Positions 421 to 64,000 of a stretch of 64,000 nucleotides of DNA are shown piece after piece (within the stretch, counting starts at the first letter, position 1; each line of letters opens with the position of its first letter). The notes beneath the pieces are model-generated. The model was not told the origin of the DNA and did no database searches. It saw only the letters and a list, made by a program, of their open reading frames with translations. Source of the stretch: Eledone cirrhosa (Eukaryota); the NCBI GenBank assembly GCA_964016885.1, contig OZ024743.1:311054001-311118000 (forward strand), read 5' to 3'. The position numbers were made by a program, and so were the translations under genes.

Positions 421-730
421 AAAGAGAAAAATGTGAATTTGTAGATGTTAGAGTATTTTATTATACATATTTCCATGGCGATAGATATCGTGGTTTCTTC
501 AAACAGCAAAATTGAGGAAAATATATTTCCCTAGAAGGGAGCAGACATCCAAAGCAAAATCAAAGATCTTTTTTTAGTTCGCTCCCATCCACCCATAATT
601 ATCTCGGAAACGTTACTTTTTACTCAATTTTGCTGTCTGAAGAAATCACGATATCTATCGTCATGGAAATATATATATAACGGCTCGATTAATAAAAGAC
701 TCTAACATCTACAACTTCGCACTTTCCTCT
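421..730. repeat. Fold-back (inverted repeat) of PLE pseudo-LTR type, arms ~421-531 and ~618-730
   Basis: ttccatggcgatagatatcgtggtttcttcaaacagcaaaattgag (471-516) is the reverse complement, with a few mismatches, of ctcaattttgctgtctgaagaaatcacgatatctatcgtcatggaa; the outer gtagatgttagag/ctctaacatctac also match. The right arm abuts (TA)n. Confidence 0.8.
632..684 (+). ncRNA. Type I hammerhead ribozyme motif
   Basis: gctgt-CTGAAGA-[acgat atct atcgt hairpin]-GAAA-tatatatATA-acggc. Helix I is gctgt/acggc and helix III is (TA)n. Confidence 0.7.
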
Positions 731-731
731 G

Positions 732-851
732 TATATATATATATATATATATATATATATATATATATATATATATATATATATATATATATATATATAT
801 AGAGAGAGAGAGAGAGAGAGAGAGAGAGAGAGAGAGAGAGAGAGAGAGAGA
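732..851. repeat. (TA)n-(GA)n compound microsatellite, representative of dozens of (TA)n/(TACA)n/(CA)n tracts in the window
   Basis: Directly visible. The largest tracts are ~23820-24230, 45110-46470, 50690-51320 and 52100-52400. Confidence 0.98.
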
Positions 852-1364
852 GATGTGATATCTATGTATATATATATATATCACATCTCCTAGTTTAGAA
901 CAACAAAACTGTATTCTTCCTATCTTTCGATTTTAGCACTTTTATGAATTTTTATGGGTTTTTTATACTCCATTTTATGTATTTATTTATCTATTTATTG
1001 TTTTAATTTATAATCTTTTTAGAAAAAGTGTCGAATAAGCAGTATTATTTTTGATAAATATAATTTGTGTACACACGATAAACATAGATTTATTCTTTTC
1101 TCTTAAATTACCGACTATTTTTACTTTCCTGTAATATGTATAATTAATGATTATTATATAAAACACCTATCCTATTTTCTGGTGCTGATTTCTATGATGA
1201 CATTGCTTCTATCCATAGCGTTACTCTAAAAGCATTTTGGTATATATTTCAGACATTATTTATTAAACTTATTTCTTCAGTCTTTCAATTTATCATGTTT
1301 CGTTTGTCTAGGTTTGATAATCCAGTTTCAAAAATATTATATATTGTATACCATAGCCGTATTC

Positions 1365-1506
1365 ATCATTGGGTGGTTCCAGAGTATGATTTGCAACCAC
1401 TTGGTTCTTAGTTCAGTATTGCTGCACATCATATTAAGCAACTGTCTTTTAATATAAACTCGAGCTAACCAAAATCTTATGAGTCGAATTTGGTAAACAG
1501 AAACTG
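1365..1506 (+). mobile_element. Degenerate tRNA-derived SINE fragment
   Basis: caaccacttggttcttagttcagt...ctcgagctaaccaaaatcttatgagtcgaatttggtaaacagaaactg resembles an abundant octopus SINE, recalled from memory. A related reverse copy lies at ~15710-15830. Confidence 0.4.
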
Positions 1507-2532
1507 CCTATCCTATATCTAACATCCAATGTATATCACTTGCTAGTTTAAAAAGTCACTATACAACTCATCATGGTGCTATTGGCATATAGTTATCATA
1601 TGAGTAAGAAAATAATCAAATACGAAATCGATTAGACAACCAACATATTTGATATTTACTACACCTTGTTGAGTTGCAATAGATGGGTTTTATGGGTCAA
1701 TACAAATCTGTTATATTGCTCTGATAGACAGATATTCATTTAGTAGTCGAACAACGCACACGTGTTATTCAAGGCTCCATGATGATTCGATAAAGAGAAC
1801 TATATATTGAATAAATTTTTTACTTCAAAGAATCGTTCTGTTGAACGAATTTCTTCCAATATTAGCTGTTTTGATTCATTGAAATAATTAATATTGTTTC
1901 TTAATTACAGAAACCGAAATTTTAGCTATCTTTTCATTGAGATGTCAAGTATATTAGTGCCAAATAACTTTCAGTTTTATATATATATATATATATATAT
2001 ATATATATATATATATATATATATATATATATATAAATGTAATCTGAGTTTTTCGAATATTAATTATAATATTCGATTCGTTTGCAATTAGGCAAACAAG
2101 CCTCATTTTTAAAGCCATGTCAGTAGAATGAGCCCCACATTCTTGGTCTTGTGTTGGCATGTAAACAGAACTACAGACACTAATGTTTCTGCGTATTACC
2201 CTTCATCAGTACAGTTCACTGTTCACCTGCCAACTGTCAGAGCTAGTGAAAATGTATGCTATTTTCTCAAATATTCAGTGACTGATCAACCTGTCATGCA
2301 TATTAGCAGACTGGCTGATCAGTCAGATCTGCATACTAACAGATCCACTGATCAGCCAAATTTGAATGATTGAGAAAAGGAAAATGGTGATGGTGGTTGA
2401 GGTACTAGTGGCAGCAACGCGAAAATCCCAAGTTGTAACAAATATGGAAAATAAATGGTGTTTACCAGTTTATTTTTACATTATTTTTAATTAAAGAGAA
2501 AAGTCATTATAAACTGATTATTTTATATATTT

Positions 2533-2562
2533 ACTAGCTGCAGTACCCGGTAATACCCGGGA
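2533..2562 (-). mobile_element. Helitron-like 3' terminus
   Basis: The minus strand reads cccgggtattaccggg (GC hairpin) tactgcagCTAG|t, the canonical Helitron hairpin plus CTAG-T end. Confidence 0.5.
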
Positions 2563-60749: not shown

Positions 60750-61085
60750 TAGTCGGGCTGGACAACCGATGGCGCGGTTAAACCACTGGGAGTGAAGGAC
60801 CCCTAGCCTTTGTCAGGGCAGTCTTCTAGGAGAAGGCAACTCAGGTAATTGGGATAACTGCGATATAAAACCTGCGGCTCAGTAGTTACCGATGATGTTG
60901 ATATTTTCTTCTGTTGGGGTTATAGCCACTGTCGCTCAGAGAGTGGGATTGGCTCAGTGCACAGCCTTTCCTCACTTTAAAAAATATCTTCATGCACAGG
61001 CATTGCACGATAGAATTAATTAGTAATTATTAATAATGGTATATCGTGCAATGGCCATACTCGATAACGAGGGGGCAGCCATCAT
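60750..61085 (+). mobile_element. Possible RTE-like LINE 5' UTR-derived fragment
   Basis: agggcagtcttctaggagaaggcaactc...ataaaacct resembles RTE 5' regions, recalled from memory. Confidence 0.3.
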
Positions 61086-61213
61086 ATATATATATATATA
61101 TATATGTGTGTGTGTGTATATATATGTATGTGTATATATATATGTGTATATATATATATATGTATATATATATATATATATATATATATAATTGGTTATG
61201 CACGAGTGCATAA

Positions 61214-61328
61214 TCTCTGATGATATGGGATCGATTGTGCATTGGATATCGAATGCTCTACTAAATATATAATATTATAGATGTAGCGAGATCTAGGCAA
61301 ATTGATGTCTATTGAAACGTACGTAAGA
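61214..61328 (+). ncRNA. Type I hammerhead motif with long helix II
   Basis: tct-CTGATGA-t atgggatcgatt...aattgatgtctat t-GAAA-cgtac GTA-aga, with palindromic acgtacgt; the unit is flanked by (TA)n. Confidence 0.7.
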
Positions 61329-61699
61329 ACCGAATAAATCTCTTTTACTGCATCTTTCTGTTCTTTTTAATTCTTTATATATATATATATATTATATATA
61401 TGCATATATATATATATGTATGTGTATGTATGTATATATATATATGTGTGTGTACATATATATATATATATATATATATATATATATATATATATATATA
61501 TATATATATATATATATATATATATATATGTATGTATATATATACATATATATATATATATATTATATACATACACTCACATATATATAAATATATATAC
61601 ATACATACATACACATATATGTGTATGTATGTATATATATATATATATATACGTATGTATGCGTATATATATGTATATATATATATATATAAATGGAAA

Positions 61700-62360
61700 A
61701 AAATGAAACGAAATTTCATTTTTCACTCTTAGTACGGCTGTTATTTAAATTTAAATATAAGTATGTATATGTTCATAGATATATGTATACAGACGTACAG
61801 TAGTATGTATATATATATACATACATGCACACTTATATATATGTGCGTATGGATTTACCGAACATTTATTATAATGGTCGGTTTGTTTGTAAACAAACAT
61901 CCCGTTTTAAGCCGTACAGTGTTTAGCAACCCTCGTTGCCCCTTTGTTCAACACTGACAAAGGAACGATGTACTAGCTTCAAGCTTATTAACTATCGATA
62001 TGCGAATTAAGCTCACTCGATATGCAAATTAGGCTGTTCAGCCGTTAATATGCACAGGGAAAGTATATACTTTCAGACGTTCAATCATCTGGCAGGAAGG
62101 TATACGGTGCTGACGATTACTAATAAGCTTGAAACTAGTACATCGTTCCTTTGTCAGTGTTGAACAAAAGGGCAACGATGGTTGCTAAACACTGTACGGC
62201 TTAACTCGGGATGTTTGTTTACAAACAAACCGAGCATTATAATAAATGTTCGGTAAATCCATACGTACATATATATATATATGTGTGCATGTATGTATAT
62301 ATATATACATACTACTGTACGTCTGTATACATATATGTATGTACGTATAAATACTTATAT
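61700..62360. repeat. ORF-less fold-back, 6350-family, hammerhead at 62105-62145
   Basis: 61755-61990 is the reverse complement of ~62120-62358. Confidence 0.9.
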
Positions 62361-63239
62361 ATATGTGCGTTACACAGTCTTTTAAATTATTTAGAATTGA
62401 AGCATATCAATTTGTCCCTGGATGTTTACTGAGGAGAGCAGGACATGATATTCCTACACTGATTCATCTCGAAACATATTTGGATTTTAAAGTTTAAACT
62501 TATCTACGGAACAGGTTTGATTTTGAAATTTAAATGTGTCTAAACATCATAGCCATTTGGCAATGCAGTTCGTCTTTGTTGATTTATTATTTTAAATCGA
62601 TATGGACAAACTGTAGTATAATAATTAGTATACTTTATTCTGGCTAAATTTTCTTTTGCAATATAAATACAGATGTGTTGGTATCTGTGTTTCATCATAT
62701 ATATTAGTTTATACACGGCTCAGAGGTATTTCCTTCTTCGAGCTAATTCCATTGTAAAAGAATTCATTACACTTAATAATATATATGTATATATATATAT
62801 ATATATATATATATATATATATATATATATATATATATATATATATGTGTGTGTGTATATATATATATACGTATGTATGTGTGTATATATATATATGTAT
62901 ATATATATATATGTATATATGTATGTATGATTATATATATATATATATATATATATATATATATATATATATATATATATATATATATTTATATATATAT
63001 ATATATATGTATGTATATATATATATATATATATATATATACGTATGTATGTGTATGTATGCGTATATATATATATATATATAAGTGTGTATGTATGCGT
63101 ATATATATGTATATATAGATGTATGTGTATGTATGTGTATATATGTATAAATATATAGTATTATATTAGGAGGAGGTTATAGTTCACTTGAAGCATTGTG
63201 TAATGGGGTATAAACGTTTGAATATGTATAATAAAGCCA

Positions 63240-64000
63240 AAACAATGCAGGTATGGACATAGAAAAAAGAATGCAATTGCAAAAGATATTGTTGATAAAT
63301 CGTCTTTTACCTTAGATTTATTTAAATGTCCTTAATTTTCGAGATAATATCTCTTCTTCAGAGGGAAATAAAGGTCTCAAACCAGCGTTCTAAATATCTT
63401 ACCAAGCCATGCTGACAGGAAATAGTATAGAGTATCTGTTCTATCTCTAATGTCAAAGAGTTAAAATTATGTGGATAAAGAGTAGTTTCCCTTTAACAGG
63501 GGTTTGTTTAGGGTTTTTTTTTAATTAATTTTTTTTTTTTTATATACATGCCTGTTTAAGTGTGTGGGAGAATGCATGAAGGTGTAAGTATGTGAGTGTG
63601 TGTGTGTGAGTGTGAGAAGATAAGTCTATTCGTAACTGTGGGAGATAGGTGTTATCTGGTGTTAGAACTGGTTTTGTGTGTGTATGTGTGAGAGAGAATA
63701 AGTGGAGGTGTAAGCGTGTGTGTGTGTGGGGTGTGTAAATATGGGGCTAGAAGCCGTATCAGGTTATAAATTGGGTGCTGAGTTGTAGTCTATTATTGAT
63801 TGGTGGTTGTGTTTTATCTATAATTAGTGATTCCTTAATTCTAAGATTGCCGAGGTTTCTTTCCTTAGTTTCTATCCTAACTGTTATCGTTTTGTCGGTG
63901 TTTTTGCATTTAACTAGGTGTTTCTTAAATGAGGAAGCGTTAGTATTGAGGTGTTCTTTTATTCTTATGTGGAGTGGTCTGGTGGTGCTACCTACGTAGA
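63240..64000 (-). mobile_element. 3' end of a PLE running off the window (GIY-YIG ~63760-64000; hammerhead-like motif ~63329-63366)
   Basis: Minus strand: YVGSTTRPLHIRIKEHL..FKKHL..LRIKESLIIDKTQPPIN. Also cct-CTGAAGA-a gagat att atctc-GAAA-aTTA-agg. Confidence 0.8.

Follow-up and report, generated by a model that had tools for sequence, protein, structure and literature searches.

Hammerhead motifs of Penelope-like elements and tandem retrozymes clustered in a 64-kb stretch of the Eledone cirrhosa genome

Type I hammerhead ribozymes have been described both from the pseudo-long terminal repeats (pseudo-LTRs) of Penelope-like elements (PLEs) and from small non-coding tandem repeats, the retrozymes. 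Here we analyse a stretch of 64,000 nucleotides from Eledone cirrhosa (contig OZ024743.1, positions 311,054,001 to 311,118,000 of the forward strand; hereafter “the window”, in whose own coordinates positions are given), which carries both kinds of elements. Why PLEs carry hammerheads and what copies animal retrozymes are questions on which this genome bears. Our analysis makes it probable that the type I hammerheads lie in the 3' pseudo-LTRs of many PLE families, mainly of the Hydra clade, and in retrozymes that the same enzymes likely copy, and that they are clustered through (TA)n insertion. The parts are new representatives of known kinds of elements, notable chiefly for their scale and for a precise insertion signature.

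The closest described elements are the Hydra-clade PLEs of PMC8557442. Like these, the elements reported here have just one open reading frame (ORF) of ~710 amino acids with RWK and DKT motifs, a CxCx5C linker, no CCHH motif and flanking CxxC and CxH motifs; they likewise show (TA)n targets, a 3' sense-strand hammerhead, an inverted 5'-truncated arm and a tail at one end. By eye, the reverse transcriptase (RT) resembles those of Hydra-1_Obim and Hydra-1_Ajap. Differences concern number and structure. PMC8557442 reports 27 Hydra families, one of them from octopus, whereas here many families occur that are 39-55% identical. Hydra units reach ~3.5 kb with long 3' untranslated regions (UTRs), several hammerhead cores are non-standard, and tails measure ~80-100 nt versus 30-40 in the published elements. 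The tail hairpin reported below is not described in the available parts of PMC8557442.

The hammerheads themselves match those of PLEs in PMC4209133: they are of type I, many families have an extra base between positions 9 and 10.1, the 15.2-16.2 and loop 3 segments are palindromic, and a U3-A8 covariant, divergent opposite-strand pairs and many heterogeneous families per genome recur. As in metazoan non-LTR retrozymes (PMC7229834; bioRxiv 10.64898/2026.07.22.740005), there are low-GC, non-coding tandems of 300-500-bp units with one type I hammerhead per unit and co-existing PLEs, and the palindromic tetraloop is that of amphibian retrozymes from the same two sources. Both infer mobilisation by PLEs or long interspersed nuclear elements from co-occurrence and pseudo-LTR similarity, whereas the arrays described here bear the PLE insertion signature itself, i.e. 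paired divergent arms, junctions in (TA)n, and a short end combined with a long one. A further parallel is Poseidon PAc of the green anole (PMC11167929), in which two internal initiation sites bound a tail downstream of the hammerhead, both strands are cut and extended, and targets are AT-rich. PAc belongs to another clade, and the excerpts of PMC11167929 report neither the near-strict pairing of one site per arm nor the tail hairpin seen here. In E. cirrhosa, microhomology of 2-8 nt with (TA)n is frequent at the short site.

Hammerhead motifs in the window

A strict type I descriptor (CTGANGA, helix II, GAAA, helix III, UH, helix I) accepted 19 of the 40 CTGANGA cores in the window. In the shuffle control that had been proposed beforehand, local dinucleotide shuffles yielded a mean of 0.007-0.04 strict matches and never more than one (150 shuffles at each of two window sizes); the reversed window yielded none, and permuted decoy cores (n=179) gave a mean of 0.03 and a maximum of two. 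A second, bulge-tolerant descriptor, which also allows loop-less, U3-A8 and U4-variant forms, found 27 matches (20 with canonical core, two U3-A8 and five U4 variants) and none in the reversed window; with helix II relaxed it found 29. An earlier descriptor requiring helix II immediately after the core had produced just six matches and was superseded. The motifs have the CUGANGA and GAAA boxes, the UH site and three helices in type I order, although helix I comprises only 2 bp in the family at 48521.

Homology searches (BLAST, one seed per family) extended the set to 45 hammerhead copies in 21 seed families, approximately 16-18 of which are decayed or truncated copies (including 6148, 51515, 51658, 56246, 56919, 60216, 61217 and 62110). 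The preliminary description of this DNA, which counted about 40 motifs from 18-20 families, was therefore right, and all 26 coordinates it gave lie on or inside a hammerhead-like motif. Its multiplicities hold for 29357 (three copies), 32169 (five), 43545 (four) and 46674/49026/54080 (three), while the family at 38815 has six copies instead of five; its list of families was incomplete, as one (2209, minus strand) had been overlooked. CTGANGA cores at 1280 (minus), 16266 (minus) and 37724 fall outside all families under the type I descriptors, the last of them sitting in a two-armed element at 37371-37903.

The Rfam check suggested in the preliminary description came out empty, no family in the window scoring above the gathering threshold. 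The best hammerhead score, for family I, was 20.6 bits (HH9) against a cut-off of 52, family G had no Rfam hammerhead match, and in an E-value scan there was no hammerhead in the best 150 of 405 rows, nearly all being TA-repeat microRNA noise. Rfam models fail to cover these hammerhead forms.

Covariation across genomic copies, by contrast, was found as expected. Among 21 distinct copies of the superfamily with a TATATA loop, both sides change in 12 of 17 pairs, and two-sided changes fill 62 cells compared with a shuffled mean of 16.7 and a maximum of 16 in slid controls; these copies were selected by descriptor and come from one superfamily, and the test leans towards pairing. Across them the core is invariant while the helices covary, which argues for selection on the catalytic fold. 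Helices had been called unrelated in sequence yet paired; the pairing stands, and several families nevertheless form groups by a common loop 3 and 3' flank. At the fourth position of helix II (columns 23 and 52 of alignment A1), pairing is broken by a C that faces a pyrimidine in 22 of 22 aligned TATATA-superfamily copies, and this mismatch amid covarying pairs may mark a tertiary contact or a protein site.

The inner segment of loop 3 is palindromic in 21 of 30 cluster representatives (not fully independent of each other) versus 3.5 expected, a feature tied to dimeric cleavage in PMC4209133. Only families P and Q lack loop 3, and most others have a palindromic one, as do the Hydra-clade hammerheads in the literature. 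The earlier assignment to minimal hammerheads of PLE pseudo-LTRs is thus correct as to the pseudo-LTRs, and as to minimal form applies to P and Q only; the three tandem families (I, G and H) represent retrozymes. In monomer folding, the closing pair of helix III has a probability of ≤0.1 in 18 of 21 canonical-core matches, partly an artefact of the folding program, which forbids loops below 3 nt, and of 0.14-0.85 in all eight variant-core matches. In variant-core hammerheads (families C, D and E; loci L054, L231 and L251) helix III tends to be longer and stable in the monomer, as if a weaker core offset the loss of dimer control. The U3-A8 core is present in 14 of 14 core-containing copies of family D (window plus closest genomic matches) and also in locus L022, with C3 in two more distant copies; U4A is family-wide in family E (22 copies in 1.27 Mb), and U4C occurs in both copies of family C. 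Both U3-A8 and U4C have been reported from nature as variants that function (PMC3088659), whereas U4A was found neither in the available parts of that source nor in a literature search. The motifs are predicted to cut RNA, mostly as pairs.

Carrier elements, retrozymes and their insertion ends

Five ORF remnants in the window combine a PLE RT with a C-terminal GIY-YIG region, and the Hydra-clade families number at least seven. Families A-E and F1 share 39-55% protein identity, and in each of A-E the hammerhead lies at the 3' end on the sense strand. The ORF of family A is full-length (712 amino acids) in loci L022 and L023 and has RWK and DKT (versus DKG); that of F1, complete in locus L219, has DKT, and GWR at the RWK position. 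A CxCx5C linker without CCHH is present in A, C, D, E and F1, and with one substitution in B, while CxxC and CxH occur near the C-terminus wherever it is readable (A, B, D and F1). Judged by this motif set, and by comparison with published proteins by eye, the carriers of families A-F1 appear to be Hydra-clade PLEs. The unit of family A measures ~3.5 kb because of its 1.2-kb 3' UTR; PMC8557442 puts Hydra-clade elements “generally” under 3 kb. Intact relatives of family S adjoin Hydra ORFs in loci L055 and L063. Families K, R and P lie downstream of non-Hydra endonuclease remnants, which are of the CCHH type in R and P; by the motifs of the translated remnants R is Neptune-like, P has GPKF, DKG and CCHH, and K is decayed. 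The near-complete canonical non-Hydra PLE ORF of family P has few stops and crosses the right edge of the window into locus L029 (1-2400, minus). In total, linkage to an ORF is seen for ten hammerhead families.

Standard protein searches contributed little: Pfam returned one weak, sub-threshold GIY-YIG match (family C) for 27 ORFs and no match for a 712-residue Hydra ORF in the copy searched, a PDB sequence search gave nothing meaningful, and a homologue search returned 1,248 proteins without an informative name among the 120 listed. The Pfam result for the 712-residue ORF is the one that bears on the earlier prediction that standard repeat annotation would label such elements as simple or unknown repeats. 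ORF linkage and genomic sampling support the view that the motifs are pseudo-LTR hammerheads of PLEs and that this ecosystem is genome-wide.

The window is AT-rich, with 179 (TA)6+ runs. A (TA)6 run lies within 300 nt on the 3' side of 36 of 45 motifs and on the 5' side of 15 of 45, compared with 27% of random positions (random side), and over 67 samples the match count tracks TA content (rho 0.58). Many insertions are short fold-back stubs which keep only the 3' end. The clustering of motifs is probably explained by insertion of the elements into (TA)n, mostly as 5'-truncated stubs with two arms that retain the ribozyme end; one event would often leave two motifs beside TA runs still usable as targets.

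Insertions terminate in (TA)n, on the downstream side of the predicted cut site. In ~10 well-sampled families the 3' ends lie mostly at two fixed distances past this site (~34/111 nt in A, 17/97 in D, 49/138 in F1 and 131/166 in I; the 14-nt distances of family 6 reflect an internal AT run and were excluded from the end-pairing count). Among 28 F1 insertions selected on the long arm, a partner was visible in 17, and in 16 of these 17 it was short. Immediately 3' of the short end, a hairpin is found in several Hydra families, with a GAGYRCT box (tail box) as its 3' arm; families A and E have a second GAGYRCT box between the long end and the ORF. Of the 22 long-ended copies in the TATATA, TGCGCA and CCWGG groups, 19 carry the tail box; overall it occurs in 20 of 95 long-ended or internal copies versus one of 95 equal upstream stretches (five control motifs: 0-7). 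It is also visible in the published consensi of Hydra-1_Ajap (twice), Hydra-2_Ajap and Hydra-2_Amil (sea cucumber, coral). Retrozymes I and M have a near match, and K and R no clear tail box.

Families I, G and H are non-coding tandems with periods of 312, ~421 and 524 bp and one type I hammerhead per unit. For the 312-bp retrozyme (family I), 26 loci comprise one duplicate, four single-armed, one edge-cut and one with an aberrant arm, leaving 19 two-armed insertions (L108, a duplicate of L123, was dropped; L169/L170 and overlapping loci were counted once). All 19 scorable two-armed insertions pair an end at about unit position 238 with one at about 265, all four single arms end at the short site, and no insertion ends at the cut site (unit position 97). 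In PLEs the tail is often found at one end only (PMC8557442), and in PAc it lies, in vitro, between two internal initiation sites (PMC11167929); the end patterns of the retrozymes match these findings and so carry the PLE signature. Units differ by 0.6% within arms, by 0.6% between the arms of one insertion and by 1.5% between insertions, and in some arrays private variants occur in every unit. Together with the end patterns, the single haplotype of most arrays speaks for circular or multimeric RNA as the template copied by Penelope. The tandem junction and variants were also found in contigs of four sequencing runs whose kind is unrecorded, which have no bearing on expression or RNA ends. The 3' region of the 312-bp retrozyme recurs at ~70-80% identity in related elements (window 59964-60497, L023 7490-7900, L030, L067 and L116), of which at least family M carries a different hammerhead, suggesting module exchange. 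At L103 709-1065, a retrozyme unit has a 45-bp duplication which spans the tail between both end sites.

Proposed copying mechanism and alternative readings

In the scenario we propose, a (TA)n run would be nicked on its two strands by the endonuclease, each nick offering a 3' end for internal priming on a tandem or circular RNA, at the short site for one strand and at the long site for the other, before the arms join at variable 5' points. The enzyme is probably positioned, in Hydra families, by the small conserved hairpin that follows each site on the 3' side. At an earlier step, tandem transcripts are probably cleaved by hammerheads acting as dimers, which would yield unit-length RNA that may circularise. 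A palindromic loop 3 would enable dimer cleavage of tandem copies, while solo stubs, which are numerous, would mostly stay silent; single-haplotype arrays would result if one unit were copied repeatedly round a circle. Retrozymes are likely copied by the same PLE enzymes. More tentatively, and with a probability clearly below even, a general Penelope mechanism might be at work in which a protein dimer binds one ribozyme-made RNA circle at two hairpin boxes and primes both nicked strands simultaneously, so that one arm is short and the other long, the same machine copying retrozyme circles, in a genome with the densest known load of hammerhead ribozymes, numbering a quarter of a million or more from upwards of 80 families. 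If true, this dimer-on-circle model would answer two questions, the mode of spread of animal retrozymes and the retention of the ribozyme by PLEs.

Several observations weigh against the proposed scenario. Hammerhead mutants of the anole PLE still insert, and no RNA-seq reads end at its cut site (PMC11167929); one of nine Xenopus retrozyme dimers was cleaved in vitro (bioRxiv 10.64898/2026.07.22.740005), and minimal hammerheads cut poorly even as dimers (PMC4209133). In our data, helix I is often not favoured in monomer folding with 25-nt flanks, one F1 insertion combines two long arms, one arm of the 312-bp retrozyme ends at unit position 165, and Hydra families B and C, like retrozymes G and H, have an altered tail box or none. 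Mosaicism, with a variant in some units only, is seen in about six of 25 arrays (L103, L114, L115, L116, L117 and the window) and fits multimeric templates better than one monomer circle; the copies compared are the best-scoring matches rather than a random draw. No autonomous partner was identified for any retrozyme, and a low-stringency partner search for the 312-bp retrozyme in the fetched loci met only related non-coding families.

Considered unlikely here, though by no means negligible, is the idea that the hammerheads are passengers, kept as folded RNA or rarely cut, and that insertion starts from uncut linear tandem transcripts without circles. In its favour, every insertion end is located downstream of the cut site, and the integrated cDNA therefore spans an uncut site; mosaic arrays exist; three of the five ORF-linked Hydra families in the window have non-standard cores (U4C, U3-A8 and U4A); cleavage is dispensable in vitro (PMC11167929), and the idea of hammerheads as parasites of PLEs has been raised in PMC8557442. 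Yet families that diverged deeply share an invariant core while their helices covary, private variants throughout an array require a bottleneck of one unit, and U3-A8 and U4C are among the natural variants reported as functional (PMC3088659). Far less probable is a scenario in which families I, G and H represent minisatellites that arose from pseudo-LTR stubs by unequal crossover after insertion, instead of being copied as multimers. Growth of tandem families by unequal crossover has been proposed (bioRxiv 10.64898/2026.07.22.740005), local amplification or conversion can also make arrays homogeneous, and neighbouring units share variants in L103 and L114. By no means would this easily account for a haplotype common to both divergent arms, for outer ends that each lie at a fixed PLE-type site in (TA)n, or for an inner junction at varied unit positions among insertions that are 98-99% identical. 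Chance matches in AT-rich, fold-back, low-complexity DNA are the least probable explanation of all. A TA-like minisatellite in locus L059 did produce eight false U3-A8 matches, which were removed before families were counted, and a few singletons look spurious, but shuffled, reversed and decoy sequences give 0-2 matches, and the family structure, the covariation and the fixed position within elements speak against it. A chance origin is refuted for the motif set as a whole, with 62429 (no second copy, no clear cleavage triplet) and 48528 as single doubtful cases.

Genome-wide scale, feature coordinates and other repeats

The genomic sample consisted of 127 evenly spaced 10-kb pieces from large contigs (1,269,400 called bases; assembly 3.0 Gb). 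It contained 103 intact motifs by the strict descriptor (reversed: 0), i.e. 81 per Mb or 243,000 genome-wide (bootstrap 179,000-319,000), and 113 canonical cores by the second descriptor (reversed: 1), i.e. 267,000 (196,000-347,000). The 60 pieces fetched after the descriptors had been fixed gave 57 and 61 matches. By extrapolation the genome holds ~240,000-270,000 intact hammerhead motifs; with decayed copies, the families of the window alone account for 140 in the sample. The 144 matches of all core types form 48 clusters (25 singletons, a few of them spurious; Chao1 ~81). Hydra ORFs are matched in 21 of the 127 pieces, over 24,539 bases or 1.9% of the sampled DNA, and a search with one RT piece returned 44,481 first-look candidates. 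The large and diverse ribozyme-bearing retroelement ecosystem postulated in the preliminary description is thus genome-wide according to this sample. Its emphasis on extreme density holds for the window, which with 297-312 motifs per Mb versus a genome mean of 81-89 is a ~3.5-fold hot spot and as such not typical; six neighbouring 10-kb pieces hold six motifs. The largest published count we found is 126,247 in the axolotl (PMC7229834; 28 Gb, ~4.5 per Mb), about half of the count here; descriptors differ, and Schistosoma could be dense. PMC4209133 gives ~2,000 for Schistosoma, 4,000 for coelacanth and 9,000 for Xenopus, against ~250,000 here with a different descriptor.

Diverged families by the dozen, young ORFs still intact and recent insertions by the tens of thousands make this genome a natural covariation resource, and its variant cores and exact insertion ends allow precise predictions for in vitro work. 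A quarter-million ribozyme motifs, together with Hydra ORFs that make up ~2% of a genome, can escape Rfam and Pfam scans. Host introns and UTRs would be affected if even some solo copies cut. Features of the window are compiled in Table 1.

Table 1. Hammerhead-bearing elements in the 64-kb window
Feature	Position	Strand	Remarks
Family A PLE, RT and GIY-YIG region, frameshifted	32470..33947	+	between pseudo-LTRs 31246-32348 and 34583-35732
Family A hammerhead, inverted arm, long 3' end	30075..30132	-	
Family A hammerhead, upstream pseudo-LTR	32175..32232	+	two tail boxes next, before ORF
Family A hammerhead, downstream pseudo-LTR	35559..35616	+	helix II mutated
Family A fold-back stub	52421..52569		hammerheads 52478 minus and 52512 plus, divergent
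Family B ORF remnant and hammerhead 56246	54405..56275	+	helix II 2 bp, broken in this copy
Family B endonuclease remnant and hammerhead 3508	3479..4197	-	
Family C two-armed insertion	16642..19650		ORF remnant 17449-18929 plus
Family C hammerheads	16945, 19487	-, +	U4C core, long helix II
Family D two-armed insertion	24231..27070		ORF remnant 25516-26461 minus
Family D hammerheads	24334, 26882	-, +	U3-A8 core, 5-bp helix III
Family E element	38820..42631		ORF remnant 39020-41026 plus
Family E hammerheads	38820, 42065, 42563	+	U4A core
Family E hammerhead, decayed	42369	-	U4A core family
Family E hammerhead stub	7095..7135	-	
Family E hammerhead stub	52864..52904	+	
Family F1 two-armed stub	15087..15470		hammerheads 15273 minus (long end), 15372 plus (short end)
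Family F2 two-armed stub	51467..51710		both hammerheads damaged
Family F0 two-armed stub	412..731		hammerhead 637-679 plus
Family S, decayed copy	56919..56962	+	
Family I, 312-bp tandem retrozyme, two divergent arms	42678..44034		both outer ends in A/TA runs
Family I hammerheads	42875, 43187	-	
Family I hammerheads	43551, 43863	+	
Family M, diverged relative of 312-bp retrozyme	59964..60497		different hammerhead 60216 minus, GAAA mutated
Family G hammerhead	6731..6761	+	family makes 421-bp tandems elsewhere
Family G pair	61946..62140		one truncated (minus), one mutated (62110 plus)
Family H, three hammerheads	28699..29433		28769, 29292 minus; 29363 plus; family makes 524-bp tandems
Family K hammerhead	46679..46713	-	
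Family K hammerhead 49064	49030..49900	-	downstream of decayed non-Hydra GIY-YIG remnant
Family K hammerhead	54084..54118	-	
Family R two-armed insertion	47121..48757		CX4CxxC linker and CCHH-type GIY-YIG (Neptune-like) ~47720-48110
Family R U3-A8 motifs, uncertain	47381, 48528	-, +	2-bp helix I
Family P loop-less minimal hammerhead 63361 and canonical PLE 3' end	63333..64000	-	DKG, YVDD, CCHH
Family Q, decayed copy of loop-less minimal hammerhead family	6148..6176	+	
Family J hammerhead	44680..44748	+	
Family L hammerhead	2176..2209	-	overlooked in the preliminary description
Family N hammerhead	61217..61325	+	long helix II; helix I cut at fold-back junction
Family O motif, doubtful or decayed	62429..62490	+	no second copy found

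Other repeats accompany these elements. Non-LTR retrotransposon fragments with weak RVT_1 and zf-RVT matches occupy 8048-14353 (plus); this element, which may be R4/NeSL-like, has a C-terminal restriction-like endonuclease region and an internal direct repeat (10068-10522 / 12397-12842). A ~200-bp repeat with tRNA-like promoter boxes forms a 204-bp tandem at 22618-23567, in which neither descriptor found a hammerhead, and has further copies at 27173, 28154, 51908, 52941 and 53766; copies are tandem or inverted and often beside TA runs, and the repeat resembles a cephalopod tRNA-derived short interspersed nuclear element. Two pairs of ~400-bp direct repeats with 89% identity lie at 4751-5154 / 5374-5774 and at 58984-59358 / 59560-59961.

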